Shown in pieces: positions 5,601 to 64,000 of a DNA stretch of 64,000 bases. The stretch comes from a virus. Made by a program: the position numbers and the translations under genes. Position 1 is the stretch's first letter; every line of letters begins with the position of its first letter. The stretch is taken from positions 28,522-92,521 of IMG/VR virus record IMGVR_UViG_3300042471_000228. The stretch is one strand, 5' to 3'. The notes beneath the pieces are model-generated. The model was not told the DNA's origin. It made no database searches and was given only the letters and a program-made list of their open reading frames with translations.

Positions 5601-5785
5601 TCTATATTATCAGAACGAAGCATTTCTGAGTTTAGTAATGTCCCATAGATGTTACTTAATTTTTCATAACCTGCTTTATACTGAGCTTCTTTTGTTTGAA
5701 GAGCATTAGTATAAAAATTAAAGTCGGGTTTAAAAGGTTGTAACCTAGGTATATAATCTGTTATTCCTTGTATATAGGTAGCCAT
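2624..5785 (-). CDS. Virion cargo/ejection protein with membrane-inserting segment
   Basis: 1053 aa, mostly helical, with a long Ala/Gly hydrophobic stretch containing WNPVGW; synteny. Confidence 0.7.
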   Translation of the reverse strand: MATYIQGITDYIPRLQPFKPDFNFYTNALQTKEAQYKAGYEKLSNIYGTLLNSEMLRSDNIERRDQFFTQIDNEIKKVAGLDLSKEQNVSAAQKVFQPIIDDKYIQKDISYTKNWRNQQSRAEALKNCTDPKKCGGKWWDGGVRALNYQAEDFVKATADQSLSFQNPTYTPYVNVYEDVMAFAKEMGFERTEVTLTPDGKYRVTVKNGPGIVEDLTQTFMNRTLNNPQAIEMYKTQAYLDRKDFITGNASVYGSDEEAERIYLNDALAKINEQQKKLLKDAESVKTSISDSNKVAEKSINDVPVNDVADQNFLDYLNNLNSQEESANSVANASTQALNETENAQNLDIESMRYRVDSAKAQSLLTSEMFDYASQYANLTMEEEITEDKYALASFDHGLKMEEIEYKAAIDYEMEMLKFDKQKELKLFEYTLENGGLPGSESTLDFNEQGIPVEPGPGGTGIPEGGAAAIAQQQVKAKMGDYDMAVQEKMTFVLSELDSIINNPGAYSKEQVASAKRQKEEIFGKAQVVSTPTTQAQRGTDALTPGVAAGGIAVAAGTAGVAAASAAVPLAAAGTVNAWNPVGWGLLVAAGVTAVGAGLYNYLSDDEETVPPTVTQGGYVDDSGRIVNVKGHVDASNPNSPYNIQNINKRLDSFIATEGNGLFRGKQTFKSRSTEINQRIQTADQMRQSAFKKARKDDLAIRQRLVGLYGNDGTELLIDETGHRRSEREFINEYSRKYRNTIDNPMMNPAATFVMDIVMDDAADVYETAMERYNRVYDRGEVPGLGIGVNTVGEGGGLVGRNNRRFSFDPAQPGPLRAVVKDLYLKDIAPALSNPTMKGALFTLGDATNITGEDEVNNSTQAQSIISNLLKESLSTKWKTKDSKRPLFDITRVGITQNNPNKVAVTFEIDQDFINKYDGSENNPGITAGLAESGDNKVSLLLDRDKVSSTFFTSTEPTPQEFLLHNNGRVDVNAYNEFGGTGSIVKDPVSGTKSFTLTRKYMNPETGQLEELVMGDYGDFDVNDMYEKINLELASRYKQNFDLLRTPSQEQTNE

Positions 5786-5811
5786 AATTCTTTGTAAATA
5801 TACTAAATAGT

Positions 5812-8430: not shown

Positions 8431-8436
8431 AATTAA

Positions 8437-20700: not shown

Positions 20701-22908
20701 TAAACCTATTACAGCTGATATAAAGAATACTAGGTTGGTTGGTAACTTCTCTAACGGGTGACCGTCTACAGGTGCAAAAGTTCCTTTGATATTTTGATAC
20801 CTACCTAATTGTTTATATAGATGTAATTCGTTTGCTGATAGAAAAGGATTTTTAAATTGAGTATCTGGTGAATGAAAACTTAAAAAACTTTGACTATAAT
20901 CTGTTAGAAAGTTAGATGGATTGTTCCAAGCACCATCACTACCTGTTGTATACTGAGATGGGTTACCTGAATAGAACGGAAGTTTAGTTAACGACTTATC
21001 AGCACCTCTAAAGTTATAAGGATAGTTTTGATAGTAAATTGTTTCATTATCTACGTTTTTATACGAACGCATATTTTTAACAACACCCTTTGCAATAATA
21101 GATCTATTACCATCACGAGAACTTCTTAGAATTTCATATGCAACAATACCGGGAATTGGATTACCATCGTTATCAAGAGGTGTATATATATTTTTAAAAC
21201 GTACTCCTAATATTCTAATTGCACGCGCAGTGTTTTTAATTTCATATGAAGATGCGTTTAAAACAGGATTTCTTGTTATACCCAATCCTTCTGTTCCTTG
21301 TAAATTAGTTGGTGAATAATCTAATATTTCACCAGGCATCTTATGATGACGAATAGGTTTACCACATAAGTCATGATTAGGATTTCCTGAATTTGACCAA
21401 GTATGATAAGAGGAATTCCATACTTCTGGTTTAGTATCAGGATACTTTTCCGTAGATTCCCAATAACCCATCTTACCAGTAGCTATTGTTTTAAAAGGAA
21501 TCACTTGCTCAGTGTCTTGTAAGTTTACATCTAAAGATGTTACATATGCAGTATTAACACTTCTCCAAAAAGGATCTGTAGTTAAATTTGTTAGATTATT
21601 AAATACAGAAGCTTGATGGGCGACGTCATTAGAACTTCCGGGAGATAATATTTCATATTCAGTTCCGTGATTATCAATTTCTCTACCCACTTCTTTTGCT
21701 CTACCAGGAATATGATAAGAACTACTGTAGTCACCTGTATTATAAACGAATCTAATCCAGAATGCATATTGTTCATCACGCATATAACCGGTAACATTTC
21801 CACCTTTTCTATAATAATCAATAGGTGCTTCTATCATTACCCATTCTGTTTCAATTTTATTAGCAATAGGTTGATAATTAAAATCAAAACGTCCTGTAGG
21901 AGAAGTTCTTAACATGTAAGGACCATTAACAAAAATACCTTCTGACTTCTCAATTACTTGAGATCGTATTGGAATTTGCTCAATAGGTATTGTAGGTAAA
22001 CTTTCATTTATATAATCGATGGCAATTTCTACATCTCCCTTTGTACTATATAGACCGATCCTCTTAGCACTAGTTTGTTGATTTATAGTTCTTACTATAA
22101 CTAATTCAAACTCATCAAATGTTTTAGAATCTAATCCACGGATTGTTAACTCTAAAGATCCTGATGCATTAGCATGAGAAAATAAAGGTTGTACTATACT
22201 AGGTGAGTAATATTCTGTAACCTTCTGTCCATTTACGGAATATGCAATAACTGCATAATAAGATCCATTAAGTAGTGTACCAGAAGATGCTCCTTTCCTA
22301 ATCTCAATACAAGGTGTTGAAATTAATCTAGCGAGTCTTATTTCCTCACAGTCTAGTGTATATGGTGTACTTGGTTGACAATCAACACAATCTGGATCAG
22401 AGTTAACATCTTCACAAATATATGGTACACCAGGCCATGGTTGTTCGAACGGTCCTAATCTAACATCACCTATGTTAAGAGTTCTATCAGGATTAACACC
22501 ATCAGACCAATAAACCTGAAAAGTACAGTCAAAGTTCTCTTTAGATGTTCCTATAATAAGATTCGACTTTTTAAAATTCAAACAAGAGTCATTGACTACT
22601 TTAGTATATAGACAGTTACCTTCTGTAAATATTCCTATTTCTGAATTAAGATCGTTTGTTGAAAAGATTAAAAAGTGATCACTTGTAATTCTAATTTGAC
22701 CTATAATCGTATAGGGTGCTAATGCACATAGTTTATTACCTTGTTCGTTACCTATTATCCCTTGATCACCACCTACCGTAAAGTTTGTTGCGTTACGTGC
22801 ATGTGACCATGTACCTTCTGGATAGAAGATATCATCATAGTCTTTGATCAGACCTTTATTAAAAATTTCTGATTCTTGACTGATGGATGAATCTTTAGAC
22901 TTTGCCAT
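17710..22908 (-). CDS. Tail stabilisation/muzzle protein (crAss-like Tstab)
   Basis: 1732 aa; FNKGL...WSHARNA...GNEQGN N-terminus, YMRDEQYAFWI, CGKPIRHHKMP, WTISYDP...WISFHDW; follows the ring genes. Confidence 0.85.
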   Translation of the reverse strand: MAKSKDSSISQESEIFNKGLIKDYDDIFYPEGTWSHARNATNFTVGGDQGIIGNEQGNKLCALAPYTIIGQIRITSDHFLIFSTNDLNSEIGIFTEGNCLYTKVVNDSCLNFKKSNLIIGTSKENFDCTFQVYWSDGVNPDRTLNIGDVRLGPFEQPWPGVPYICEDVNSDPDCVDCQPSTPYTLDCEEIRLARLISTPCIEIRKGASSGTLLNGSYYAVIAYSVNGQKVTEYYSPSIVQPLFSHANASGSLELTIRGLDSKTFDEFELVIVRTINQQTSAKRIGLYSTKGDVEIAIDYINESLPTIPIEQIPIRSQVIEKSEGIFVNGPYMLRTSPTGRFDFNYQPIANKIETEWVMIEAPIDYYRKGGNVTGYMRDEQYAFWIRFVYNTGDYSSSYHIPGRAKEVGREIDNHGTEYEILSPGSSNDVAHQASVFNNLTNLTTDPFWRSVNTAYVTSLDVNLQDTEQVIPFKTIATGKMGYWESTEKYPDTKPEVWNSSYHTWSNSGNPNHDLCGKPIRHHKMPGEILDYSPTNLQGTEGLGITRNPVLNASSYEIKNTARAIRILGVRFKNIYTPLDNDGNPIPGIVAYEILRSSRDGNRSIIAKGVVKNMRSYKNVDNETIYYQNYPYNFRGADKSLTKLPFYSGNPSQYTTGSDGAWNNPSNFLTDYSQSFLSFHSPDTQFKNPFLSANELHLYKQLGRYQNIKGTFAPVDGHPLEKLPTNLVFFISAVIGLGLAGKSVHGKHTRVLKSGRTSNLVGALPANPAPALAALDESALESRFPGFTRIFTEAVTGVNPAVTTYLIANAVGDAALLTPGVTGEGSTREITIEPSDQNYLPTLLRGAVGVVTYLNYFAEGAQSVFNILLNIMSYTQYAQAYTSHGYFHYSSKGNVDIATNSRRFIKDAGYIDNQLQSIGDKTINNLYRGRFVALDLIGNLNDPSGTDDSLKILSDRVTAANITDEGISRPFYSNSYMYYGALKLAFRNQYGQLTSVKQLTTRCRFPYKPLLNISNIYTVPVIAESSLVFGGDVYIGRYTEKNTFFYFYDWLSNQPDGTEFDYRLRTMVSNPRFWADFTKFDITSFLNTALNKAVDGNFGQMLEGLPTNMFNLDLDEQLTVSSYINASSEEDPGIFSGLLDFINSASDAIDGSAVNNMKSANRLRFLKKNAYFYLFQSGVIDLFVESEINIDLRDWGEDPSERHYDPYAYTNLRELFDIDHIKSGNYFKYDISLSVSKIFNNFISWGNMQPTYYNPSVAETCFTYYPNRVIYSLPQQDEAVKDYWRVFLPNNYKDFTSKPISVKQISKNGALLLFETQSPAQFLGVDTLQTDTGTKITIGDGGLFSQPLQYLTNADAEFQHGSCQNRLSVTNTPAGVYYLSQSQGKVFAVTGNGIEEISAAAMRWWFNKYLPYQLIKDFPNYYLTDNPVVGIGCQSVFDNTNQILYFSKRDFRRRRDFAGSFQYAPQYGYNKFLINDSIQVTLGDPDYFEDCSWTISYDPKNKMWISFHDWHPELTISSKNYFITTKTLQSQAGGIWKHNDNDYEFCRYYGISYPFEIEFIAATGQTVNTLKSLEYDLECYTYDIDGIDMYHVLDFNFDHAIVHNTEQVSGVLNLNLNPKGNPIAALQYPKINPTSIDIIFSKEEQKYRFNQFWDITRDRGEFTYPNVQQPIWNTELNGYKRDLNINNLDYQKASFERKKFRHYTTHVLLSRSVSGPVKMLFKITNVKNQYSPR

Positions 22909-22910
22909 GT

Positions 22911-23816
22911 TTAGACAGCGTTATTTATATTAAACTGAGTAGGGTGAGAATATGATTTGAACATGTCATAGTACTTAGAGTACATTGCTTTTCTATTCAT
23001 CGCCCATACTTTTTGCATTTCGGAGAAGTTCGGTGTATTCACAATACTTAATGCATTGTTTCTTGCTGCACGAAGTTCCGCATTAACCAACTGAAATTGA
23101 TTACTGACTGTAGGATTACCATCCATAAGCATATTCTCTAATATACGTTTCTTAAGAGCATACTCATAGAATTCATTTATCATCGGATGATCCACAACTA
23201 GCAAGTTACCATCATCGTCTTCCATATTACCTTGGTAGTTAATATATAAGTTTCCGGTTTCAATATTCGTAAATATAAAACCATCTTTGATATAACCTTC
23301 ATCTTTTCCTTTATAATTAAGATCTGCACAATCACAATTGATCATGTATGAATTCTTAAATCTTAAAGGTGTTAGCATATCGTAAGTGCGAGTTTCTGTC
23401 CCTATTACTTGAATCAAACTATATGTAGTACCACATTGAGTTAGACAAGTTGATTCTGGAGGAAGTGTTGTTCCTGAACAAAGATTTGATTCAACCCAAG
23501 GTTTATAACTAGGCACTACTTCTTGAATATTAGTACCTTGTGGTACTTGTGTAGTAATACTATATGATCCGCAGATTAATGCAAAGTTCATTACGTGAAA
23601 GTTCTCAGGAAGTCTTGCTCGATAGTGTTCAATCTCAAGGACTTTCTCCATGGTCTTTTCTACACGCAATCCTAGATCATAATTAACCTTCATGGCAATC
23701 TTAATAAGTTGCGCAGGTTCAATAGCACCATCTGTAGCAATACTTCTTAGATCCGTTCTAACGTCTTCTAATAAAGATTCAAATGTTCTATATTTGAGAG
23801 TGTAATTGTAGTTCAT
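22911..23816 (-). CDS. Tail ring/tubular protein
   Basis: 301 aa; YINYQG...DDDGNLLV motif; synteny. Confidence 0.75.
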   Translation of the reverse strand: MNYNYTLKYRTFESLLEDVRTDLRSIATDGAIEPAQLIKIAMKVNYDLGLRVEKTMEKVLEIEHYRARLPENFHVMNFALICGSYSITTQVPQGTNIQEVVPSYKPWVESNLCSGTTLPPESTCLTQCGTTYSLIQVIGTETRTYDMLTPLRFKNSYMINCDCADLNYKGKDEGYIKDGFIFTNIETGNLYINYQGNMEDDDGNLLVVDHPMINEFYEYALKKRILENMLMDGNPTVSNQFQLVNAELRAARNNALSIVNTPNFSEMQKVWAMNRKAMYSKYYDMFKSYSHPTQFNINNAV

Positions 23817-25047: not shown

Positions 25048-25113
25048 AGTCCTTATTATAATTTACAAAATTTATTCGAGGTTTGAAAGATACAACGCAT
25101 TTAAGTGATATCC

Positions 25114-37970: not shown

Positions 37971-39593
37971 TTAGAATGAACCTCCGGTGATCGGGTTACG
38001 CATAACAATCTTCAACACCTTGGTTGGGTCTTTAACCCAGATAGCAGGCATCATTTGAGTCATGAATACGCGATATCCATTGAATTGACCAGAAGACTGG
38101 AATCCTTGAGTACGTCCCATGTAATCCATGGTTCCGTTTTGGTACCACCACTTCAATTGATTATCCCAACCCAACTTCAACATATAGATGTTATCGTTAG
38201 TATTGTCAGTGATATCAAAGATAATGAAGTTATAAGAAGACAATGGGAAACCATCGATGATTGGGTTTTCAATGTCGTTAGTATGCAAGTTGTCGAACGC
38301 TGGGTTCAATACAAACTTAACGTTTGCCAAGAATGGGATAACGTAAGAAGTGTAAGCAAAACCGAAGTTCAAATCCATACCTTTACCAGTGATTGCACCG
38401 ATATCAGCAGCTTGGATCAACAAACCAGAATTGATTGCTTCTTTCTTAATAGCTTCGTTAACCATGCGCATACCACCCATACCAGTTTGTACGATCAATT
38501 GACGCTTAGGATCTGGTCCTTGGAAGTCAACTTTACCAGCATAGAAGTTATAGATTTCAGAACGGAACAAGTCCAAAGTGAAACCAGATTTGTTGTATAC
38601 ACGCTTGAAAGAGTTATCCAACTGTCTCCACAAACCGACAGACAAACGCAAATCGTCTGGACCATCTTGACGAACACGACCACCTTGTCCCCACATCAAG
38701 TAAGTCTCGATGTCAGATGCAACTTTGGTCAAGTGAGCTGCTTCCATAGCAGTCAAGAAAGTACGAGACAATGAACCGTTACCCATTGCACGCTTAACAT
38801 AATCCTTACCCATCTTAGATACCATAGTATCCATAGAAGTAATAGAAGGATCAGTAGTTTTATCAAAGTTTCTCCAGATCTCTACAACAGGAACAGTACC
38901 ATCAGCGTTCATACCACCTTTGATCATCAAGTCAGCACGAGATGAAACAGAATAGTGAACGTGAGCTTCAGCACCACCTACGAAGTTGTAGTATTCACGG
39001 AAACCAGATTGGATTTGAATGTCAGAGAAACGCTCTCCGTACTCACCACGTGCAGAACCTTTACGGAACAATTTGTCACCAGGTTGCAAATACAAAGTGG
39101 TGTCAATACCTGCTGTGTTGTCATTATTAACCAACTGAACAGTGTAGATAAATCCATCACCTGTTGGGATGATATCATCTACAGTGATGTACATTTCCAT
39201 TCCGTTGTACTTATCATAAGTGATAATATCACCATGACCGAACTCACGACGTGAGATCTTAACTTGGAATGTTGTACCATCAGTACCTACGTTAGTACCT
39301 TGAGTGGTTTCAACGGTGTCAATAACGTAAGGAAGATCTTGTACAACTGGTGTTTGCCACTTGTACTCTCCACGAGCGTTATCGACTGTGATTACGTTCT
39401 TTCCACCGAAGCTAGACATTTGATACAAAGGCATTTCTACTTTCTGAACCATTGCCCACAAGTCAACTGGTCCTAGATCCATAGGTTCTGCATTTCTCAA
39501 CATGTTAACCAAGTGGTAAGAATCTACGTGTGAACTAGCTGCGTAGTTGGTATCTCGTAGAAATATACCATTGTTTAAAACTGGAGTTGCCAT
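37971..39593 (-). CDS. Major capsid protein
   Basis: 540 aa, two genes after the portal; strong codon bias; GEYGERFS...; own terminator. Confidence 0.9.
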   Translation of the reverse strand: MATPVLNNGIFLRDTNYAASSHVDSYHLVNMLRNAEPMDLGPVDLWAMVQKVEMPLYQMSSFGGKNVITVDNARGEYKWQTPVVQDLPYVIDTVETTQGTNVGTDGTTFQVKISRREFGHGDIITYDKYNGMEMYITVDDIIPTGDGFIYTVQLVNNDNTAGIDTTLYLQPGDKLFRKGSARGEYGERFSDIQIQSGFREYYNFVGGAEAHVHYSVSSRADLMIKGGMNADGTVPVVEIWRNFDKTTDPSITSMDTMVSKMGKDYVKRAMGNGSLSRTFLTAMEAAHLTKVASDIETYLMWGQGGRVRQDGPDDLRLSVGLWRQLDNSFKRVYNKSGFTLDLFRSEIYNFYAGKVDFQGPDPKRQLIVQTGMGGMRMVNEAIKKEAINSGLLIQAADIGAITGKGMDLNFGFAYTSYVIPFLANVKFVLNPAFDNLHTNDIENPIIDGFPLSSYNFIIFDITDNTNDNIYMLKLGWDNQLKWWYQNGTMDYMGRTQGFQSSGQFNGYRVFMTQMMPAIWVKDPTKVLKIVMRNPITGGSF

Positions 39594-40856: not shown

Positions 40857-40958
40857 AAAGTTGGTTTAGCTTTACATTAATAATATACACAAAATTATAA
40901 CTTTAAACTTTATAGATTAACCATATAAAAAAATTAATCTAGATACTATAGCTAAAAG

Positions 40959-43709
40959 TTATTTTTTCTTAGTTTTGTCACTGTCTTTTTTGTCGAATTT
41001 GTTCTTGTTTTCACGTGCAATCTGTAATTGAGTCTGTGCAATTTGCTGTTGAGTTGCTAATTTTTGCTGCTCAATGTTCATCTTATCACGATGTTCAGAT
41101 TGCTTAGTAATTTCTTTTTGTCTTTCAAAATTCATTGTTTGCTGATACTCATCAGAACTTTGAATTTGTTTAAGAGCATCCATATAATCTGACTGTTGAT
41201 TCTGATTCTGATCTTGCATAGCACCGTAACCAGCTGATCTAATCTGTGATTCAAGAATACGAGCTTCTCTATCTTTCTGATTTTCAGATGCTTCAAACTC
41301 CATTTTCTGACGTTGTTCTTCAGCTTTAGCTTGAAGTGCTTGTTCTTGCATTTGTTGTGCTTGTTGCATTTCAGCTTGTTTCTGTTCTTGCATTTTAACC
41401 TCAGCTTTCTTAAGAACATGTGATACTTCAGCAACCGATTCAGATTTAAGAACATTACCTAGATCATATATAGATGCACCAGTAGTGTTATTCTGAATAG
41501 CCATTTGCTTTAACTGTTCTAGGATAGCACGTTGATTTGCTTTAGTAGCTACAAATATATTTAGATCTCTAAGTAGTAGATCTGTTCCGTTAATCTCAAA
41601 GTTAGTACGTTCGTCCTCAGTGATCATATACTGCAAACGACTTGATGGTTTTGTAGAATGATAGAACTGTGCTAGGTCTGTGCGCATCTGATGCACGCGC
41701 GGCATTAAATAATCACAGTGTTGAATGAAGTAAGTCTCAGTTTGTGCATATGATGCATTGATAGACTGTTCTATACCAGTAGCTGTTTGCTGACCAATCT
41801 GTTGACCTAGACGCTGTGGGGTAATACCAATTACTTCAAATGCTTGCATCTTAAAGTAATTAGCTAACTGAATACGTGACATCAAACGATTAGTCTGATC
41901 TAGATCTAGTTTTTGATAGTGTTGAAACGCAAGTGCATTTTCTGTATTAGTAATTGATGTATCTAAAGGTAGCATCTGGAAGTTCTTCATAGCAACATAA
42001 GCTTTCGCTAAGTTGTTCTTACCCCAGTCCTCACCTAGAGAATGTTTCGGTAATGCATTCTGATCAAGCATGATTACAGTACCTAATTCATCTACTAAGA
42101 TATCAGCAATCTGATTATTTACAATGTTGTAACCAATTTGGAAAGGTTTCATCAAGTCTACCAAAGATACAGATCTTGTATTTCTATCTGAGAATACAGA
42201 ACCTTCTACAGGTAGTTTACATCCATATAGAGATGACTCTCCTTTAAATTGGAATTTAAGAGGTTTGATATTATTCTGATTAACACCTAAGTAGATAGGA
42301 TTAATACCACCTGGATTATTACTACCCCAGAATGTAGGTCTGTTTGGTCCGATCTTTACACCACCCCACACTTCATTAATCCAGATCCAGTCAATGTGCT
42401 CACCGAAGATCAAGTTATCCTTAGTCTTATTTTTAATAAGTGCTGTATCATACTGAGGTTTATCAGTTACCTTATATGACTCATCTACAATGTCTTGCAT
42501 TACATCACCATTATCATTGATCTTGGTAAGATGTCCTACTTTACGTTGTGACTTCCAATATGCTGTGGTAACACGAAGCATATTAGACATACCCATATCA
42601 AAGTAGTCTTCATCTTGTGTCATAATCCAGTTTACAATATCACCACCATATGCAGTGTTGTCCCACATAGATGTGAACTGACGATACCCTAATGATGGTA
42701 AGTTAGTATTCCATTCATAGGATTTAGTAGCATCATAGTAGCTACCATCGTTTTGGTAACCTTGAATAGGATAACCAGCAGATCTAACTGGATAAATAAG
42801 TTCTAATGATTCTAACTGATCTTCAGTCATTAACCATCCGTATTTATCAATGACGTCTGCAACAGTCATCATATCAAATTTACCAACCCATTGACCTTGA
42901 GATATATAGCGATTGTCTGGTGACTTCTGATAGAATGTAAGAACAGGATTCCATAATTCTACATCATAGTCATCTTCCATCATCTTGAAGTGCCAGAACT
43001 CACGGTCTGTAATCAACATATCACGGAATGCACGCTCCTCTAACTCATCTATTTTAAAGCGATCAACATCAACTTTATGCTGATGTTCTGCCCATTGCTC
43101 AACCATACTCTTGTAACTCTTTGAGAAAAAGTCTTGAATTTCTGGTAAAGTCTTTAATTTCTCTGGTGCCATTGCTTGTTGAAATTCCTCAGAATCTTGA
43201 GGATATCCCATTTCAGCAAGCTTCATCATCATCTCTTGCTGTGCATTAAATAGAAGAACTTCTTCTACCTGAGCACGTTTTTGTTCCATCATCTCGTTAT
43301 AAGAGATGTCATCTACACCCGAGTAACTAACTCGAGTATTACGTTTAGCAAACTCAGAAACTAATGTATTTATTACATTAGGAATAATAGGATAGAATTT
43401 TAATTCTAGTGCTGATACGTCGTCTTGTGTAAGAGTTTCAATGAGATCTGCATACTCATTATCTTGTTCGACAATGTAGTCACCACGATCTATGATACCT
43501 TTTGCCAGTTTGTAGTTCTTCATCAAACGACGCGCGTTGCGACGAATTTGTTTCAAACCTTCCCATTCTAACCAGTCTAGATTCCACGCTGTCCAGTCAT
43601 TATCTTTCTTCGCTCTTGGAATAAACTGAATAGGTTGATTAAGGGTACCCATTCGGTTAGTTTCCGCTTTCGCACCGTTTTTTAATTGTATTGCGTTATA
43701 GACTTGCAT
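40959..43709 (-). CDS. Portal protein
   Basis: 916 aa after TerL; NYKLAKG, FYPIIPNVINTLVSE, SLVDLMKPFQ, GITPQRLG; Q-rich C-terminal barrel. Confidence 0.92.
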   Translation of the reverse strand: MQVYNAIQLKNGAKAETNRMGTLNQPIQFIPRAKKDNDWTAWNLDWLEWEGLKQIRRNARRLMKNYKLAKGIIDRGDYIVEQDNEYADLIETLTQDDVSALELKFYPIIPNVINTLVSEFAKRNTRVSYSGVDDISYNEMMEQKRAQVEEVLLFNAQQEMMMKLAEMGYPQDSEEFQQAMAPEKLKTLPEIQDFFSKSYKSMVEQWAEHQHKVDVDRFKIDELEERAFRDMLITDREFWHFKMMEDDYDVELWNPVLTFYQKSPDNRYISQGQWVGKFDMMTVADVIDKYGWLMTEDQLESLELIYPVRSAGYPIQGYQNDGSYYDATKSYEWNTNLPSLGYRQFTSMWDNTAYGGDIVNWIMTQDEDYFDMGMSNMLRVTTAYWKSQRKVGHLTKINDNGDVMQDIVDESYKVTDKPQYDTALIKNKTKDNLIFGEHIDWIWINEVWGGVKIGPNRPTFWGSNNPGGINPIYLGVNQNNIKPLKFQFKGESSLYGCKLPVEGSVFSDRNTRSVSLVDLMKPFQIGYNIVNNQIADILVDELGTVIMLDQNALPKHSLGEDWGKNNLAKAYVAMKNFQMLPLDTSITNTENALAFQHYQKLDLDQTNRLMSRIQLANYFKMQAFEVIGITPQRLGQQIGQQTATGIEQSINASYAQTETYFIQHCDYLMPRVHQMRTDLAQFYHSTKPSSRLQYMITEDERTNFEINGTDLLLRDLNIFVATKANQRAILEQLKQMAIQNNTTGASIYDLGNVLKSESVAEVSHVLKKAEVKMQEQKQAEMQQAQQMQEQALQAKAEEQRQKMEFEASENQKDREARILESQIRSAGYGAMQDQNQNQQSDYMDALKQIQSSDEYQQTMNFERQKEITKQSEHRDKMNIEQQKLATQQQIAQTQLQIARENKNKFDKKDSDKTKKK

Positions 43710-43710
43710 C

Positions 43711-45918
43711 TTATTTTAAATTTCTAAAAGGTTGTTTAGGTATTTTCATACTAAATGCTGAACCATGCGATCCGATGTGACGGAATGGGCTCATATTCAA
43801 TTTACTGAAATTATCTCGCTTATCCAACTTTTTCACCTTATCTGTCTCCTCATAACGCTTTTTATAACCGCGATTTGCTTGTTGAACTTTTGCAAAAGCA
43901 ATAAGTGCTGCAAATGAAACAAGTCTATCGACGTTTAATCCTTCTTGATATGCTGCCATTTCAGTAAGCAACATAGAATCTGGTATACGTTCTACCCCAT
44001 ATATAGTTTTTACAACCTCACCATCTGGTTTAACTTCTTGATCTAATTCTTCTTTTAAGAAGTCAATAGCATAACTTAGCATATGACTCTTAAATAGTGT
44101 ACCTGTGTTTTTCCACCCGTATTCTTGGAATACATTAGCATTAGCACCTAGATCCTTTAAGAATAATATCTGAGATCTTTGAACTAAATACTTTTGTTTC
44201 TTCCTATAGATCATATGATTAATAAATTGGGAGATATTACTCTCCACAATTGTCCAGGCGTTATACCATTCTATAATCATCTCTAGGCGCTCATGTGTCT
44301 TATTGATATCATCAAATCGACCACACCATGCGGCTACAATCTTATCACGCTCTATAAAAGTCTCTACCTTTTCACCATCATTACGGGTTACCTCTACTGC
44401 AGTTTTGTATACATATATAGAACATAGAGATTCTGATGTAGTTGTCTTACCTTCACCTACGGGGTCAATAGATGCATAGTACATCCCAAACTCCGGATTC
44501 TTAACAGGTCTCTCATAGCATACAAACACACCTGTTTTATCTTCCTGCTTCTTATCCACCGGGAATGTCATAATTGGTAGTTTAGATGTAGGTTTAACAT
44601 CCACATCTCCTTTCTCATCTCTGTAGATATCTAGATATTCTGTAGGATATGTCTTATCTTCTATCCTACGCATCTGTGCACCAATTAAATTTAGAGGAAA
44701 GATTGATACCTTTCTATAAGCAAATGCTTCTTCGATATTTCTAGGATGCTGAGAAATACGTAACTGATACTGTTCCGGACTAAGATCTTTCTTCCACTTC
44801 TCAAATTGTTCATCTAACGCTTTAAGAGCTTCTTCTACTAAAGAATTACCAAACTCATCAATGAATGGTGGCATCGACCACTGCTCAGGAATAAATAATC
44901 CTGATTTACCTATAGTACCTTTTGAGTCTATAAGATTTGTTTCTACTGCATATATATCATTTGGTTCTGGTCTAAGTGTCATCTCTTTTAGAGGTTCGCA
45001 CTGATCCAAGTCACCCACAGATCCTGCTGCAATGAACATACCTGTAGTTACAAAACCTGATCGCATCGCAGGACGGATATACTCAAATGTTGTATCCATC
45101 TTAGGAGCAATACCAGCTTCCTCGTGGAAGAAGTACTTACAAGGTCCACCGACTCCATTTGTAGGATCTTTTTCAAATGACATACCTTGTAGTACACCTT
45201 TAAGACCTACTTCTGTTTTACGTTTTTGAGTACCTTGTACAATCTCAATCTTTTGTTGCCATAGTAATACTTTACCAGGATTCATCGGACGATACCATGC
45301 AGTATGTTTATTTAAGAATGCTTCGTACTCATTTAAGAATTTCCAAGAACCTTTATCATTGATGTAGTCTTTAAGACTAGCACCAACCTTTAGAGTGATA
45401 CCTTCTTCAAACCAGATCTGATTAATCATTTTACCCATGTGGTAGTATGATGAAGCTATCTGACGTTTCTTAAGTATAGAACTATGTTTATAGTGTAACT
45501 CTGCTAATAGTTCGTACAGTGCCATATGGTACTGTGCGTCGCGCACGTCCGCGAAACCAAACCTTTGAATCTCTTTATTGAAGATAGGTAAGAAGTTCAA
45601 CCACATATAGTAATCTCTTGGTAGGTACCAAGTATTACCAGCATTTTTATAGATTGTACCATATCGGCACTTATTCTTTTCGTGATCCCAATATATTCTA
45701 TAGTCTTTACTTCCTTGAGGTGATGTGCAGTAAACACCGTTCTTATTAAACAATCTAGCTTGTTCATTAAATAGAAAACTGGTATCATCAAAGTTATACT
45801 GACCTGGTTCCTTAAATATAGATAATACAAAATCAGTATACTCTTCTCTTGTAGTAAAGGATGTTGTAGTCCAGGTACCGTTATCCCAGGTAGGTATGTC
45901 TATAAAACTAGTATTCAT
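43711..45918 (-). CDS. terL: Terminase large subunit
   Basis: LKKRQIASSY (Walker A-like), FFHEEAG (Walker B), YYASIDPV nuclease motif, NVDRLVS. Confidence 0.95.
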   Translation of the reverse strand: MNTSFIDIPTWDNGTWTTTSFTTREEYTDFVLSIFKEPGQYNFDDTSFLFNEQARLFNKNGVYCTSPQGSKDYRIYWDHEKNKCRYGTIYKNAGNTWYLPRDYYMWLNFLPIFNKEIQRFGFADVRDAQYHMALYELLAELHYKHSSILKKRQIASSYYHMGKMINQIWFEEGITLKVGASLKDYINDKGSWKFLNEYEAFLNKHTAWYRPMNPGKVLLWQQKIEIVQGTQKRKTEVGLKGVLQGMSFEKDPTNGVGGPCKYFFHEEAGIAPKMDTTFEYIRPAMRSGFVTTGMFIAAGSVGDLDQCEPLKEMTLRPEPNDIYAVETNLIDSKGTIGKSGLFIPEQWSMPPFIDEFGNSLVEEALKALDEQFEKWKKDLSPEQYQLRISQHPRNIEEAFAYRKVSIFPLNLIGAQMRRIEDKTYPTEYLDIYRDEKGDVDVKPTSKLPIMTFPVDKKQEDKTGVFVCYERPVKNPEFGMYYASIDPVGEGKTTTSESLCSIYVYKTAVEVTRNDGEKVETFIERDKIVAAWCGRFDDINKTHERLEMIIEWYNAWTIVESNISQFINHMIYRKKQKYLVQRSQILFLKDLGANANVFQEYGWKNTGTLFKSHMLSYAIDFLKEELDQEVKPDGEVVKTIYGVERIPDSMLLTEMAAYQEGLNVDRLVSFAALIAFAKVQQANRGYKKRYEETDKVKKLDKRDNFSKLNMSPFRHIGSHGSAFSMKIPKQPFRNLK

Positions 45919-50212: not shown

Positions 50213-50231
50213 ACTATAATATACAAAAAAG

Positions 50232-60073: not shown

Positions 60074-60523
60074 TTATATTTTAAAGTAATTATATAACGT
60101 ATACCATTGTGCTGCTAGTGTATTATCTGCAATATAAGTAGCACTTGTTATTACACCAGCAGCAATTCCGTTTGCTGGTTTGATTGTTTGAGAATATGCA
60201 ACATCACCGTCTACAGCTGAACCAGCTGCGGGTTCTACAATAACATCATCAACACTCATAGACTGGATACTAATTTTATATCCGGAGTTACCATCACCTA
60301 CCTGGGGTAAATAAATAGTAACACTTCCTGCACCAACTGTAACAGTATTAGCAACAATAAAAACAGTCTCTAATGAAGTTAAGTCTGTCCATGTAATATT
60401 ATAACTTGTAACCGCTTCCGCATAAGGATCTAGTATAACCACTCTGGGTACACTAGGATTGGGTGGTGGTTCAAATGGTAGTTGAATCGTTCCACCTCTT
60501 ATTAAAAACGGATTGTTCGGCAT
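60074..60523 (-). CDS. Small fibre-type beta protein
   Basis: VTIYLPQVGDGNSGYKISI motif. Confidence 0.55.
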   Translation of the reverse strand: MPNNPFLIRGGTIQLPFEPPPNPSVPRVVILDPYAEAVTSYNITWTDLTSLETVFIVANTVTVGAGSVTIYLPQVGDGNSGYKISIQSMSVDDVIVEPAAGSAVDGDVAYSQTIKPANGIAAGVITSATYIADNTLAAQWYTLYNYFKI

Positions 60524-60528
60524 ATACT

Positions 60529-60560
60529 ATAATATACAAAAGTACAAAGATATCTACAAA
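60529..60560 (-). promoter_or_regulatory. Promoter TTTG-N20-TATATTAT heading the late block
   Basis: Bacteroidota-type spacing, 5 nt before the ATG. Confidence 0.6.
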
Positions 60561-60574
60561 TATAAAAGCATAAT

Positions 60575-60840
60575 TCGGACAATCAACATACTGTCGTATA
60601 TATCATGCATTAATACACCTTTCGGGGTATAATGTCCGTTATAACATACATAATCATACCTCAACGGGTGTTATATGACACATTATATTTATACCAGTGA
60701 GTATTATACCCCCGGGTACATCTGGTAGCACGTGTACCCCCGGTATAACCGGTGAACGTTTTGTTATAGGGGAGAGAGGGTGATGGGGTATATACGCATC
60801 ACTCCCCCGTGCGCACGCGGAACCGGGGTACCCCCCTTGA
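60575..60840. other. Non-coding strand-switch region with nested inverted repeats (candidate genome end/packaging site or origin)
   Basis: CGGACA/TGTCCG; GGGTACA/TGTACCC; GTGATG/CATCAC; GGGGTACCCC. Confidence 0.5.
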
Positions 60841-60892
60841 TTCTGTGACTCTTTGTCTATCATTAACACCGTAATAGTAAAAATTCTACACC

Positions 60893-61027
60893 ATGAAAAC
60901 AGATAAACAATGCACATGCAAAGGTGCAAGAACACTCACCTTTGACAAGAGCACACATGAACTTACATGTACTGGATGCTCGAAGCAAGTCGTTCGTGAA
61001 GATGATACTGATGACCTTCCATTCTAA
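60893..61027 (+). CDS. 44-aa Zn-ribbon-like microprotein ending DDLPF (missing from the track)
   Basis: MKTDKQCTCKGARTLTFDKSTHELTCTGCSKQVVREDDTDDLPF; ATG 17 nt after motif copy 1; followed by a hairpin. Confidence 0.8.
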   Translation: MKTDKQCTCKGARTLTFDKSTHELTCTGCSKQVVREDDTDDLPF

Positions 61028-61095
61028 TATGGGGGTCATCACCCTTCGGGGTGATTCAGCTATGAGTAACACCTTAATAATTAAAATCTATACAC

Positions 61096-61293
61096 ATGAA
61101 AACAATTAAGTTATTTAGTTGGTTCTTCGGAACCTTTTTCGCATCATTGTTAATACTATCAATGTGCATCGCTCTTGTCACGTGGACACCTGTCTACAAC
61201 GTAATTCACTCTGGTTGGAGTGTGTTCACAGTATTGACCTCGTTATGTATGGGGTTATTCGTCATTGCTGAGTTGGAGGATACCATCTCGTAG
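61096..61293 (+). CDS. Early two-TM membrane protein
   Basis: 65 aa with two hydrophobic helices. Confidence 0.75.
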   Translation: MKTIKLFSWFFGTFFASLLILSMCIALVTWTPVYNVIHSGWSVFTVLTSLCMGLFVIAELEDTIS

Positions 61294-61368
61294 TGTGTAG
61301 AGGAGAGAGCACCCTTCGGGGTGCTTTTTTAGCTATCAATAACACCTTAATGCTTCAAATTATACACT

Positions 61369-61674
61369 ATGCAAAACAATCAGCCCATTCTATCCTGCGC
61401 GGGTAGAGACAGTGTCAACATCGACGCTGTATTACTTCAACAGTTGTTGGAGAATTTCACACCAAATCTCATCGGTGCCAAACAACGTGCGGGTCTACTC
61501 GAACTTGATTTGCGTCTAATTGCCAAAGGTGAGTATGGTGATGATTCCTTGAAAGTATTCAAGGATATTATTACTAAAGAGTTCCTTTTCATCCAACTAA
61601 TGGAAGCATCTCGTCTTGCGAGACAGGTACCTGCGGGTTGCGAAGAAGTTCCATCTGTTGAAGATGATTTGTGA
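61369..61674 (+). CDS. Early hypothetical protein
   Basis: 101 aa; cassette leader; acidic tail VEDDL. Confidence 0.75.
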   Translation: MQNNQPILSCAGRDSVNIDAVLLQQLLENFTPNLIGAKQRAGLLELDLRLIAKGEYGDDSLKVFKDIITKEFLFIQLMEASRLARQVPAGCEEVPSVEDDL

Positions 61675-61873
61675 ACAAACTAAAAACAAGCGAGGCACCC
61701 TTAATTGGGTGTCTTGTTTTTTTATCTACTAATAACACCTTAATGATTAAAAATTGATCAAAAATTGATTAAAACAAACCCTAGAAGCGGGGTTCAATAG
61801 AGATATAATGCGAAGTGAAACTCTATTATTTTTATCTAATAAGAACACCGTAATAGTTTAAACTCTATATACT

Positions 61874-62074
61874 ATGGAACCAACACCATTATCACCAGCA
61901 GAACGCGCAGAGTTATTGCGCAACATTAACATGAAACAGGAGATGTTATTCGGTATACCGATTACTCCTGAAATGTACGACGAGGTGTTGCACGACGCAA
62001 CAGATTCTGCGCTGTTCGGAATCGCACTCGCGTTAACGCTAATGTTAATGACTAAGAGAAGAGAGGGGATGTGA
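61874..62074 (+). CDS. Early small protein with C-terminal hydrophobic helix
   Basis: 66 aa; cassette leader. Confidence 0.7.
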   Translation: MEPTPLSPAERAELLRNINMKQEMLFGIPITPEMYDEVLHDATDSALFGIALALTLMLMTKRREGM

Positions 62075-62164
62075 TCCCCTTTTCTCAAAGGTTACGCAAA
62101 GAGAGTACACTAATGTGCTCTCTTTTGTCTACGAATAACACCTTAATAATTCAAATCTATACAT

Positions 62165-62374
62165 ATGATAATTGTAACTGAATACAGAAAGATTTTCATC
62201 TTAGCAATGCTTGATGAAAATGAAAAAATTGTAGACACTCGTCGTTATACTGACTATGGTCTGGCAATGCACTGCAAAAAGAAATTTATCGAAGAAAGTG
62301 CTTATCATTCCGTAACACTAATTACGAAAGAAGTTCCTCATAGAGGATTCACGATTCAAGCAACTCCGTGGTAA
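62165..62374 (+). CDS. Early hypothetical protein
   Basis: 69 aa; cassette leader. Confidence 0.7.
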   Translation: MIIVTEYRKIFILAMLDENEKIVDTRRYTDYGLAMHCKKKFIEESAYHSVTLITKEVPHRGFTIQATPW

Positions 62375-62438
62375 CAACAGCACCCCTTAGGGGGTGCCTT
62401 TGTCTATAACTAACACCTTAATAATTCAAATATACACT

Positions 62439-62816
62439 ATGATTAAAACAATCACTATTGAGTGTTCATTAACGGATTTAATGGACGTACTCAACGCAAC
62501 AGGTAACGCGAAAGTTGCCACAGAAATCTTGAATGGTACTTATGTAGCACCTGATTATCCCAAGGAAATCATCGGTGAGTTCGAGACCAAGAAAGAAATA
62601 CATATCGTAAATGGTGATGAAGAAGCGATAGAAACCAAAATACCTGTTATATATACAGCAATTGGTTTAAATCCATTCAACGAATCAATAGGCTATCTGT
62701 ATGTAGATAGGTGGAATCAAACGTGCAATCGTGAAATGAGTCTGCGTGCATGGATGAAACTTGATGCAAAACACGGTTCACCGTATGCATTAGCAGCGTG
62801 TGACGACTGTATGTAA
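62439..62816 (+). CDS. Early hypothetical protein (start revised to 62439, MIKTITIEC...)
   Basis: The track's start lies inside the hairpin and motif; the 62439 ATG fits the fixed leader. Confidence 0.75.
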   Translation: MIKTITIECSLTDLMDVLNATGNAKVATEILNGTYVAPDYPKEIIGEFETKKEIHIVNGDEEAIETKIPVIYTAIGLNPFNESIGYLYVDRWNQTCNREMSLRAWMKLDAKHGSPYALAACDDCM

Positions 62817-62996
62817 TGTAATGAAAAGCACCCCTTAATTGGGGTGTTTTTCTATTATCAAAATGCGATTCTGTCACCGGTAGAATACCAGTGTTTACGG
62901 GAAAAACACCTTTTGTGTGGTGTGCCTGCGTAACCAGTATTCTAATCTACTCTTTTTTGTCTATTAATAACACCTTAACGATTAAAATTATACATT

Positions 62997-63464
62997 ATGT
63001 TCTACAAAATCAATTACACAGGGATTACTGTTCCGGGAGGAATGGACCCAATCACGAAAGAGCGTCGTGACGCAAAGCATTATTTCACAATCGTCGGTAT
63101 GGACGAGGAAACCATCGCACTATTCGCATCAGAGCAGATAGATAAGAATGGTTCCAATTTCTACAAGACCGACGAAAAGACGGGTTTACCGTTGTTCATT
63201 TCTCACGGATTTCAGCACGACGGAGAAATGTACGTCACACGTGCAAGCAAACCCAATAAGAAGGGTGTTCACAGTTGGTATGCGATTTCTTCGGAGGAAG
63301 AATTCGATACACTGTGTAAGGAACGTCCGCATATGCTCGTGTCCGAATTCGGAGGTAACGAACTGCGACGTCTTGCTGTGAAACGAATCAGAGACCGTGT
63401 GAGAGCGGTAAACACAACGGGTACAACCGTCGTGACCGAGAACACCGCGGAAGACGCGCTGTAA
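62997..63464 (+). CDS. Early hypothetical protein
   Basis: 155 aa; cassette leader. Confidence 0.8.
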   Translation: MFYKINYTGITVPGGMDPITKERRDAKHYFTIVGMDEETIALFASEQIDKNGSNFYKTDEKTGLPLFISHGFQHDGEMYVTRASKPNKKGVHSWYAISSEEEFDTLCKERPHMLVSEFGGNELRRLAVKRIRDRVRAVNTTGTTVVTENTAEDAL

Positions 63465-63505
63465 CGGAGATGCACTGCACCCTAACGGGTGTGGTGCATT
63501 TTTTA

Positions 63506-63685
63506 TCTATATGGGAAATTATCCTTAACACCTTATATATATGCGTGCAGTGGTCAGTGCTATAACCACGTAACACTAATATACCGAAAAACGTAAGTGC
63601 GTCCAGTGCGATAGCGCGATAGCACTATAATACTCGCTTTTGCGTTTTTGGTGTTTTTTTGTCTATTTGGGAAATTAACCTTAAT
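63506..63685 (+). promoter_or_regulatory. Second early motif TCTAT(A/T)TGGGAAATTA(T/A)CCTTAA (63506-63528, 63662-63684)
   Basis: Two near-identical copies, each after a hairpin and T-run. Confidence 0.7.
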
Positions 63686-63722
63686 AACGAAAACAAGTTT
63701 AACCATTTAATAACTAAAAACA

Positions 63723-64000
63723 GTGAAAGCAGTATCACTAAGTAGCTACACAAAGATTAGCGACAAGACCGGTAAACCCTACGATATGTTCGTATATGGT
63801 ATTACCAAAAGCACGGAAGATGAGATGAACGCGTATAAAGCGTTTATGAACAGCAAGAACTATGAAATCCGCGAAGAGGATGGAATGGTTATCTTCCAAT
63901 CACCGTCATTCGGTGGTGAAAACATCGATGTTAAGATATCACCTACCACAGGTATACCTTATATTGATAACAGTGCAGTGAAGAAAGCACGCAGTATCGC
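63723..64000 (+). CDS. Early protein, partial (GTG start, MKAVSLSSYTKISDKTGKPYDMFVYGI...)
   Basis: Open to the window end, after a class-2 motif and an A-rich leader. Confidence 0.7.
   Translation, partial: MKAVSLSSYTKISDKTGKPYDMFVYGITKSTEDEMNAYKAFMNSKNYEIREEDGMVIFQSPSFGGENIDVKISPTTGIPYIDNSAVKKARSI

Follow-up and report, generated by a model that had tools for sequence, protein, structure and literature searches.

A row of one-gene units, each with a terminator hairpin and an invariant candidate start signal, opens the putative early genes of an uncultured phage

The early promoters P1–P3 of phage N4 are read by an injected T7-like single-subunit RNA polymerase (vRNAP), and their hairpin, made of a 5–7 bp stem and a 3-nt loop, stands in a fixed register with the start site. 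T4-like myoviruses of Proteobacteria start the small-gene cassettes known as PeSL (promoter-early stem-loop) from host sigma-70 early promoters. Of the crAss-type phages, only phi14:2 has been studied: its polymerase gp66 is packaged in the virion, as verified by mass spectrometry, and accounts for rifampicin-resistant transcription of the early genes; primer extension revealed no common motif upstream of the gp66-dependent early transcripts, and the purified enzyme transcribed only single-stranded or denatured DNA (Drobysheva et al., 10.1101/2020.03.07.982082). For gp96, the single-chain virion polymerase of phage P23-45, a strongly conserved motif was found at 14 transcription start sites (10.1101/2022.12.01.518664). 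Here we describe, in a distant crAss-like phage, a probable promoter–terminator array of which we found no published description in the literature.

The window, that is, the whole stretch of DNA analysed (64,000 nucleotides, positions 28,522 to 92,521 of the IMG/VR record IMGVR_UViG_3300042471_000228), belongs to a 92,521-bp contig that represents 77% of the genome, about 23% being missing. Capsid, portal, terminase and RNA polymerase point to a distant crAss-like phage, the capsid protein sequence being only a distant relative of those of Crassvirales. The pattern KCTA-N5-AACACCKTAAY (KCTANNNNNAACACCKTAAY) occurs in the window in eight exact copies, all on the plus strand between 60856 and 62979 (starts at 60856, 61059, 61332, 61725, 61835, 62128, 62403, and 62960), versus 0 matches in 100 shuffles, and no further copy of the core was found in the whole contig outside the array. 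Seven of the eight are followed, 16–19 nt downstream, by the ATG of a small ORFan; the fourth (61725) is followed by no ORF and instead begins a non-coding unit of 90 nt. Because two further variant copies, of the form T-run-TCTAT(A/T)TGGGAAATTA(T/A)CCTTAA, are present at 63499–63529 and 63655–63685, the array comprises ten units, whose features are as follows.

60524–60855, no strand assigned: divergent intergenic region at the strand switch, with host-type promoter boxes for the leftward 149-aa gene and GGTACC-centred GC palindromes
60544–60564 and 60529–60540, minus strand: host-type boxes of the strand-switch region, TAnnTTTG three times and TTTGTATATTAT, respectively
60856–60892, plus strand: unit 1, TCTA box, N5, core AACACCGTAAT, 17-nt leader
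60893–61027, plus strand: cassette 1 ORF, 44 aa, Zn-ribbon-like, with a homologue in contig L134
61039–61054, plus strand: hairpin TCACCC-TTCG-GGGTGA after cassette 1, terminator-like, weak T-run
61059–61095, plus strand: unit 2, GCTA box, core AACACCTTAAT, 17-nt leader
61096–61293, plus strand: cassette 2 ORF, 65 aa, family A, in all six contigs compared
61309–61331, plus strand: terminator GCACCC-TTCG-GGGTGC followed by T6
61332–61368, plus strand: unit 3, motif and 17-nt leader
61369–61674, plus strand: cassette 3 ORF, 101 aa, family C
61688–61724, plus strand: terminator, 13-pair stem and T-run
61725–61744, plus strand: unit 4 motif, no ORF after it
61745–61834, plus strand: non-coding cassette of unit 4, about 90 nt, three small hairpins, 3′ end formed by a hairpin and T-run
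61835–61873, plus strand: unit 5, motif with core AACACCGTAAT, 19-nt leader
61874–62074, plus strand: cassette 5 ORF, 66 aa, family B
62098–62127, plus strand: terminator AAAGAGAGTACAC-TAAT-GTGCTCTCTTT, not a CACCC-type stem
62128–62164, plus strand: unit 6, motif and 17-nt leader
62165–62374, plus strand: cassette 6 ORF, 69 aa, only in the window and contig L138
62380–62402, plus strand: terminator GCACCCC-TTAG-GGGGTGC followed by CTTTG
62403–62438, plus strand: unit 7, motif and 16-nt leader
62439–62816, plus strand: cassette 7 ORF, 125 aa, only in the window and L138
62824–62959, plus strand: terminator GCACCCC..GGGGTG with T-run and TCTAT, lacking the core (family D4), then about 100 nt of non-coding DNA; it looks like a decayed junction
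62960–62996, plus strand: unit 8, motif with core AACACCTTAAC, 17-nt leader
62997–63464, plus strand: cassette 8 ORF, 155 aa, only in the window and L138
63499–63529, plus strand: variant unit 9, T-run, TCTA, TATGGGAAATTAT, CCTTAAC (family D5), heading a non-coding unit
63530–63661, plus strand: non-coding unit of unit 9, about 130 nt, 3′ end formed by a hairpin and T-run
63655–63685, plus strand: variant unit 10, T-run, TCTA, TTTGGGAAATTAA, CCTTAAT, with a 37-nt leader to the GTG at 63723
63723–64000, plus strand: truncated ORF running off the end of the contig; its L138 counterpart has 149 aa

The eight copies reported by the first-pass annotation, which was made from the sequence and its open reading frames without database searches, were thus recovered by the exact pattern scan, and its motif-to-ATG spacers were confirmed as 17, 17, 17, none, 19, 17, 16, and 17 nt. 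The shared leader that it described is real and reads approximately AnTTnAAAT..TAYACnATG. Its statement that most copies directly follow a CACCC/GGGTG hairpin and a T-run holds for one element of the pair: a T-rich run adjoins the TCTA/GCTA box in seven of the eight exact copies, while the CACCC hairpin precedes four. The hairpin of copy 6 is an unrelated GC stem and that of copy 5 is AT-rich, copies 1 and 8 having no directly adjacent hairpin. Searches of the eight early ORFs against PHROGs and Pfam returned only a sub-threshold Zn-ribbon match, for the 44-aa protein. No match was obtained with the curated Rfam models over 60400–64000 (E up to 1) or by blastn of the region against GenBank phages, and a scan of IMG/VR with the exact motif gave at least 119 single chance matches and no second array.

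Related loci were found by using the neighbouring 919-aa protein as a query, single early proteins retrieving nothing, and the element is present at the equivalent place in five related contigs (L138, L134, L132, L137, and L133), with 8–11 motif copies per genome. These fall into two classes: class I (the window, L138, and L134) has AACACC[T/G/A]TAA[T/C], in 19 copies together, and class II (L132, L137, and L133) has an invariant AAAAACCCTAAT, in 25 copies. In a 91-kb relative, G001, all nine exact cores fall in a single 2.8-kb stretch, on the same strand. Between the classes, every early core differs at two positions (AACACCKTAAT vs. AAAACCCTAAT) and the polymerase cores are 49% identical, whereas the five contigs that cover the minus-strand stretch with the host-type promoter of the strand switch, from both classes, show almost no difference there; blocks of the divergent intergenic region are conserved in all six contigs. 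The concerted change of all copies could reflect homogenization by recombination among the repeats rather than co-evolution with the polymerase. A non-coding unit also occupies the position equivalent to 63530–63661 in L138, L132, L137, and L133, its consensus fold being weak (−6.3 kcal/mol, with few informative pairs). Farther away, the core was absent, bar single chance matches, from phi14:2 and eight more records of the polymerase family, several of which are fragments without the early region. When three distant, near-complete relatives were scanned de novo, in a simple way, for exact 9-mers that cluster, G006 and G007 yielded tRNA arrays and no such motif, and G005 a candidate private motif, ATATTTACTTAAA, in 6–7 copies within 4 kb.

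The phage encodes its own polymerase of the crAss type, as the first-pass annotation had supposed. A 3342-aa ORF located outside the window (contig positions 13612–23640) contains the DFDID signature at residue 2152, and an alignment of 31 family members shows no variation at D652, D654, and D656 of its 1200-aa segment. The AF2 model of the polymerase core (pLDDT 83.7) has phi14:2 gp66 (6VR4_A) as its best Foldseek match (E 3e-29, probability 1.00, TMq 0.62), QDE-1 coming second. In tblastn searches, matches were found in crAss-like phage genomes, under annotated RNAP genes where annotation exists (E-values 2e-10 for phi14:2 g066 and 1e-14 for Carjivirus gp44); phmmer of the ORF against PDB and PHROGs gave no match, so that homology is detected only by tblastn and fold search. 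The family comprises 1728 clusters at 50% identity in public data. Given its homology to gp66 and its position among giant virion-arm ORFs, the 3342-aa protein may be carried in the virion.

With phi14:2 (gp66, PDB 6VR4), the phage shares a homologous polymerase with DFDID, the position of its gene among those of giant virion-arm proteins, and two opposed genome arms. It differs by the length of the enzyme (3342 vs. 2180 aa) and by the organization of the early genes, which in phi14:2 form operons with few intergenic gaps, the genome showing no such array, whereas here each early gene has its own signal and terminator. P23-45 gp96 is likewise a single-chain two-barrel RNAP thought to be delivered with the virion, with a conserved short motif upstream of many first-expressed small genes that recurs in relatives carrying the enzyme. 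However, gp96 is fused to the tape measure and only remotely similar to the polymerase described here (Foldseek E 0.5), and cappable-seq and ChIP served to map its AT-rich motif, whereas the promoters proposed here are predicted from sequence. The likeness to N4 would lie in an injected polymerase and in phage-specific promoters at the early genes that enter first, as we propose here; the differences are the fixed-register hairpins and T7-like enzyme of N4, as opposed to a two-barrel enzyme and hairpins without fixed register.

We consider it somewhat probable, judging from these sequence features, that the motifs are promoters of the phage's own virion RNAP. In this scenario, the 3.2-kb stretch after the strand switch would be an early region of ten monocistronic units, each consisting of an intrinsic terminator that closes the unit before it (a GC hairpin, variable in sequence, and a T-run), an abutting phage-specific promoter (a TCTA box lying 5 nt upstream of the 11-nt core AACACC(T/G)TAA(T/C)), an AT-rich, semi-conserved leader of 16–19 nt, and one small gene or, twice, a short non-coding RNA. 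The putative promoter would be read by the single-chain two-barrel RNAP, the 3342-aa homologue of gp66, and because this enzyme would be carried in the virion and injected, we propose that the early genes are expressed before, and independently of, the host RNAP. Some homologous cassettes of the relatives have only 5–9 nt between core and ATG, so that transcription probably starts inside, or immediately past, the TAAT in which the core ends, yielding very short leaders. More tentatively, and with chances that we place just short of even, the 11–12-nt core may be the first sequence-defined duplex promoter of an injected two-barrel RNAP of the crAss type, initiating within or just after TAAT, with a class specificity in step with the 49%-identical polymerases.

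The hairpins, which were proposed in the first-pass annotation to belong to an N4-like promoter, bear on two other explanations. Terminator-like sites (hairpin and T-run) number 10 in the region versus 2.8 in shuffles, and since most units are preceded by a strong hairpin and T-run, each gene needs its own start signal. That an extruded upstream hairpin is part of what the polymerase recognizes, as in N4, might be suggested by the GC hairpin located at most 30 nt upstream of many copies and by the CACCC/GGGTG stems common to four of them in the window. Over the class I and II copies, however, between 2 and 33 nt separate stem and core, and the hairpins vary from 8 to 19 pairs in the stem and from 3 to 9 nt in the loop; with a threshold of −6 kcal/mol, 7 of the 44 copies lack a hairpin. 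The enzyme found is a two-barrel RNAP, no T7-like RNAP of the N4 type being seen in the 92 kb. An N4-style promoter is thus highly improbable, and the hairpins are terminators of the upstream genes. An integron attC-like reading was rejected: the hairpins form perfect stems of the terminator type whose sequences are unrelated, and there is no integrase among the proteins scanned or in the array. Alternatively, the element might act in RNA: lying in the 5′ leader of a long early transcript, it would be a site of processing or a translational operator, and the hairpins would serve as 3′ stabilizers after cleavage, which would account for the fixed ATG spacing, the semi-conserved leader, and a TAYAC block anchored to the start codon. 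This is improbable as well, because the invariant 11–12-nt core is far more specific than known RNase sites and also heads non-coding units without a start codon, because the sense-strand hairpins and T-runs look like true terminators, and because no candidate single upstream promoter was identified. The sequence AACACCT presumably resembles the 3′ tail of Bacteroidota 16S rRNA; it has the same sense as the rRNA and is therefore not complementary to it, and this lead was dropped, the class II motif showing no resemblance.

Rather than by the virion enzyme, the motif could be read by the host RNAP, guided either by an alternative sigma of the host or by a specificity factor of the phage, itself injected or the first to be made. 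Hairpins with T-runs resembling intrinsic terminators are typical of bacterial multisubunit RNAPs, TTTG lies just upstream of TCTA in half of the class I copies, and phi14:2 gp66, as noted above, showed no promoter motif. We nevertheless regard this explanation as rather unlikely. The Bacteroidota primary-sigma promoter, tested as a −33 TTTG and a −7 TAnnTTTG 19–21 nt apart, is not what the array contains, in agreement with the first-pass annotation, which had found the motif unlike this promoter: after contig position 89000, TAnnTTTG is absent from the plus strand of the array, three being found on the minus strand at 60544–60564, upstream of the leftward gene. These boxes suggest that the host belongs to the Bacteroidota. 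Where TTTG is present it stands 16 nt from TAAT, and it is lacking in the other half of class I and in all class II copies. A scan for sigma-70-like promoters was at background (11 vs. 11.7), and TTTGTATATTAT-type boxes precede several genes of the structural arm. Moreover, a near-identical strand-switch promoter beside early cores that all differ between lineages is hard to reconcile with one host sigma, and argues for a recognition factor encoded by the phage and not by the host. Such a factor could also be a second, non-virion phage RNAP or a sigma-like protein, the array then being delayed-early or middle. The missing part of the genome could encode a second RNAP or a specificity factor, the contig being only 77% complete, and two-polymerase schemes do exist in P23-45 and N4. 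On the other hand, the array opens the rightward arm with tiny ORFans, as genes expressed first typically do, and has no other promoter-like repeat ahead of it. Neither the 92 kb available nor, in L132, the 10 kb that follow the array showed a second RNAP. We give this explanation a small probability.

The array is plastic between relatives. When the window is compared with L138 (92–94% nucleotide identity), collinearity is broken at two places only, by the replacement of the cassette-1 ORF (60900–61009) and by a 111-nt cassette indel. The 44-aa ORF of cassette 1 is replaced in L138 by an unrelated 74-aa ORF, and the non-coding cassette at 61745–61834 is absent from L138, with a breakpoint inside the motif core, a 34-nt motif region being present once in L138 and twice in the window. 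Over the six contigs, those of class I have the cassettes in the order A-C-B and those of class II in the order A-B-C, with extra cassettes in L133 and L137. Motif and leader are 97.1% identical between the window and L138, versus 93.1% for the ORFs. The suggestion of the first-pass annotation that cassettes are exchangeable by recombination is thus upheld, since content and order differ among relatives with breakpoints at junctions; it survives the comparison of relatives that had been set as its check, the cassettes not being invariant. The repeated 40–80-nt junctions (terminator, promoter, and leader) may act also as homology patches, recombination between which would delete, insert, replace, or reorder whole cassettes. 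PeSL cassettes of T4-type phages similarly have junctions made of a terminator stem-loop and an early promoter that bracket single small ORFans, and from one close relative to another whole cassettes are inserted, deleted, or replaced, the breakpoints falling within the repeated junction (Arbiol et al. 2010, PMC2839356; Comeau et al. 2014, PMC4122927). The early region is plastic in both, but in the present case the promoter-like core departs from the host type and changes with the lineage, and the phage, which is not T4-like, is distantly crAss-like and encodes a two-barrel RNAP of its own.

The candidate signal is unusually clear, being invariant and confined to one place and one strand, with two lineage versions, and because it is in addition present in many copies, it is directly testable with a short synthetic template and the polymerase core. 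If the promoter reading is true, the two classes would provide a natural pair of orthogonal polymerase–promoter systems, and a route to reconstituting promoter-dependent transcription, which was not achieved for gp66. The signal is thus a testable candidate for the still undescribed promoter of the injected polymerase of crAss phages, and the architecture shows how such phages renew their early mini-genes, probably devoted to host takeover or anti-defence, by cassette exchange.

The source record is a linear IMG/VR contig of 92,521 bp, about 77% complete, and the window ends where the contig does. Window positions 1-60523 form a single long minus-strand arm, which includes a run of giant ORFs and the following genes:
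37971-39593, minus strand, capsid gene
40959-43709, minus strand, portal gene
43711-45918, minus strand, large terminase gene
Coding switches strand at 60524-60892, and small rightward ORFs follow from 60893 on. The best match of the capsid protein to cultured phages reached 27% (a Leptolyngbya phage). Because the capsid is thus only remotely related to cultured phages, we call this virus a distant crAss-like phage, on the basis of its polymerase and two-arm layout.

The eight motif copies described in the first-pass annotation were recovered as exact matches, all on the plus strand (60856-62979), and shuffles gave none; the core AACACCKTAA does not occur elsewhere in the 92,521-bp contig. The claim of a fixed-length leader followed by one gene also held, since seven of the eight copies have an ATG 16-19 nt downstream, opening ORFs of 44-155 aa; the remaining one, at 61725, has no ORF and heads a 90-nt stretch. 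By repeat analysis, similarity between copies spans 41-53 nt, namely a T-run, TCTA/GCTA, N5, the core and the leader AATTnAAAT. Two variant copies keep the T-run, TCTA and CCTTAA(C/T), the first half of the core being changed to GGGAAATTA:
63499-63529, plus strand, variant copy heading a second non-coding unit (~130 nt)
63655-63685, plus strand, variant copy heading the last, truncated ORF

The eight early proteins of the array are all ORFans. The 90-nt non-coding cassette (61745-61834), with a promoter-type motif in front, a terminator at its end and a fold z-score of -2.3, is absent from the related contig L138 and is a candidate early small RNA. At 63499-63690, the two variant start signals (T-run, GGAAAT(T)A.., CC[T/C]TAAT) flank a non-coding unit of 130-150 nt, found at the equivalent position in all five genomes reaching it (window, L132, L133, L137 and L138). 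Its consensus structure is weak; abundant early non-coding RNAs are likewise reported for phage phi14:2. Finally, 62824-62959 holds a terminator, a T-run and TCTAT without the core, then ~100 nt of non-coding DNA; a lost cassette probably left this decayed junction behind.

Using the 919-aa protein adjoining the strand switch as anchor, we recovered five related contigs with the region, three from IMG/VR (L132, L133, L134) and two from metagenomes (L137, L138). All five carry a like array in the same relative orientation, starting immediately past the conserved strand-switch region. L138 (92-94% nucleotide identity to the window) and L134 show AACACC[T/G/A]TAA[T/C] behind TCTA-like boxes (class I, 19 copies including the window), whereas L132, L137 and L133 have an invariant AAAAACCCTAAT and no TCTA box (class II, 25 copies); the only differences between the two cores are at positions 3 and 7. 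In the 91-kb record behind L133, all nine occurrences of the class II core share one strand and fall inside 2.8 kb; the record behind L132 has seven of them inside 1.9 kb. Core-to-ATG spacers are usually 15-20 nt across the relatives, the short ones being 5 nt for one L134 cassette and 8-9 nt for early protein family G in class II genomes. Window and L138 are 97.1% identical over motif plus leader, versus 93.1% over the ORFs, and T/G at the variable position accounts for the only changes within the core. The array motif is very probably a promoter of some kind.

Other repeated signals were seen in this group. The distant relative G005 (RNAP 37% identical) has a clustered 13-mer, ATATTTACTTAAA, then nnnnTCCAT, in 6-7 copies on one strand over ~4 kb (~9.4-13.6 kb), which may be a private promoter of like kind. 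In L132, downstream of the early array (~4300-10200 in the reverse complement of bases 1-10200), AACCAAT-type leaders stand right before the ATG of many genes.

The array region contains 10 terminator-like sites versus 2.8 in shuffles. We sought the best upstream hairpin for all 44 motif copies of both classes (threshold -6 kcal/mol): stems of 8-19 pairs carry loops of 3-9 nt, and seven copies lack a hairpin at -6 kcal/mol or better. A CACCC/GGGTG hairpin had been claimed before most copies; such a stem stands at only four of the eight window copies. Nor is the proposal that the hairpin forms part of an N4-type promoter supported. The N4 promoter hairpin stands in a fixed register, whereas here the stem-to-core distance varies from 2 to 33 nt, a poor match to an N4-style element. 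As stem, loop and distance are variable and 7/44 copies lack one, the hairpins fit terminators, and they are the terminators of the preceding units.

As the first-pass annotation had noted, the motif is unlike the host TTTG/TAnnTTTG promoter: no TAnnTTTG lies on the plus strand of the array, and three are on the minus strand (60544-60564), upstream of a leftward 149-aa gene. A TTTGTATATTAT(AGTAT) box, repeated ahead of structural-arm genes and probably the phage's middle/late promoter for host RNAP, lies 10-60 nt upstream of several of them:
60529-60540, minus strand, TTTGTATATTAT-type box
50216-50227, minus strand, TTTGTATATTAT-type box
40880-40891, minus strand, TTTGTATATTAT-type box
25058-25069, minus strand, TTTGTATATTAT-type box
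Among the five relatives that span the leftward promoter, this part of the strand-switch region hardly varies, whichever class they belong to; a few hundred bases from it, the first early core follows the class. That the early cores all changed together while the host-type promoter was kept points, on sequence comparison, to a phage-encoded reader of the cores, although homogenisation among repeats could contribute to such concerted change.

The non-coding strand-switch region at 60600-60850 has blocks shared by 6/6 related contigs that appear more conserved than the adjoining 919-aa protein (46-58% amino acid identity between lineages). It holds GGTACC-centred GC palindromes (CCCCGGGTAC...GTACCCCCGG, CCGGGGTACCCCCC) and the block CCTTTCGGGGTATAATGTCCGTTATA; candidate functions are an origin, a site for packaging or first entry, and a structured RNA.

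A candidate reader lies outside the window:
contig 13612-23640, minus strand, 3342-aa ORF, RNAP homologue with DFDID at residue 2152
Plain sequence searches of PDB and PHROGs gave no match for this ORF. The 1200-aa segment around DFDID matched 1728 representative clusters (50% identity), mostly proteins of 3300-4500 aa, and DFDID and many further positions are invariant among the family members aligned. By tblastn against GenBank phages, matches fell in crAss-like phage genomes and, in annotated records, on annotated RNAP genes, among them phi14:2 g066 and Carjivirus gp44. An AlphaFold model of the segment (pLDDT 83.7) had a sole strong Foldseek match, phi14:2 gp66 (6VR4_A; E 3e-29, TMq 0.62), with QDE-1 and further two-barrel polymerases ranking next. 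In the class II relative G001 (the record behind L133), the orthologue is 49% identical over the 1200-aa segment. The family (1728 clusters) also has a conserved YHEAWHGF block (HExxH-like) in its N-terminal third, suggestive of a fused metallopeptidase-like domain.

The phi14:2 virion contains gp66, which makes early transcripts despite rifampicin; no motif shared by the sequences upstream of these transcripts was detected, and the templates that gp66 transcribed were single-stranded or denatured DNA (10.1101/2020.03.07.982082). The phi14:2 early arm has no copy of the window's core and, unlike the one-gene units of the window, its early genes form tightly packed operons. Thermus phage P23-45 has another single-chain virion two-barrel RNAP, which uses a strongly conserved motif (10.1101/2022.12.01.518664), a likeness to the candidate reader and core here. 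In the literature searched, no early promoter consensus was described for the crAss-type polymerases. Reading of the array motif by an injected phage polymerase is the best option, and one we hold with moderate confidence.

Cassette content and order, which the first-pass annotation had proposed to compare, both differ among relatives. Two events were mapped against L138, the arrays being otherwise collinear. The cassette-1 ORF (60900-61009) is replaced in L138 by an unrelated 74-aa ORF, homology ending 7 nt into the ORF and returning just ahead of the terminator. L138 also lacks the non-coding cassette (61752-61828), and the 34-nt motif region around it, present twice in the window, occurs once in L138, as a copy whose upstream half matches unit 4 and whose downstream half matches unit 5. 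Early proteins were grouped into families to compare orders.

Order of early units (letters, early proteins grouped into families; nc, non-coding)
Window: H-A-C-nc-B-I-J-K
L138: x-A-C-B-I-J-K
L134: H-D-y-A
L132: D-M-A-B-C-F-G
L137: D-nc-A-B-C-z-F-G
L133: D-M-A-u-v-w-B-t-C-F-G

These orders indicate that whole units are gained, lost, replaced and reordered, and cassette shuffling is supported, at the level of sequence, by the two mapped events and the order differences. T4-type phages are described as behaving in this way at their PeSL elements (PMC2839356, PMC4122927), which resemble the array in exchanging whole units. The promoter of PeSL elements is host-type. The system combines known kinds, proposed phage-polymerase-specific promoters and PeSL-like cassettes, and this combination has clear experimental value.
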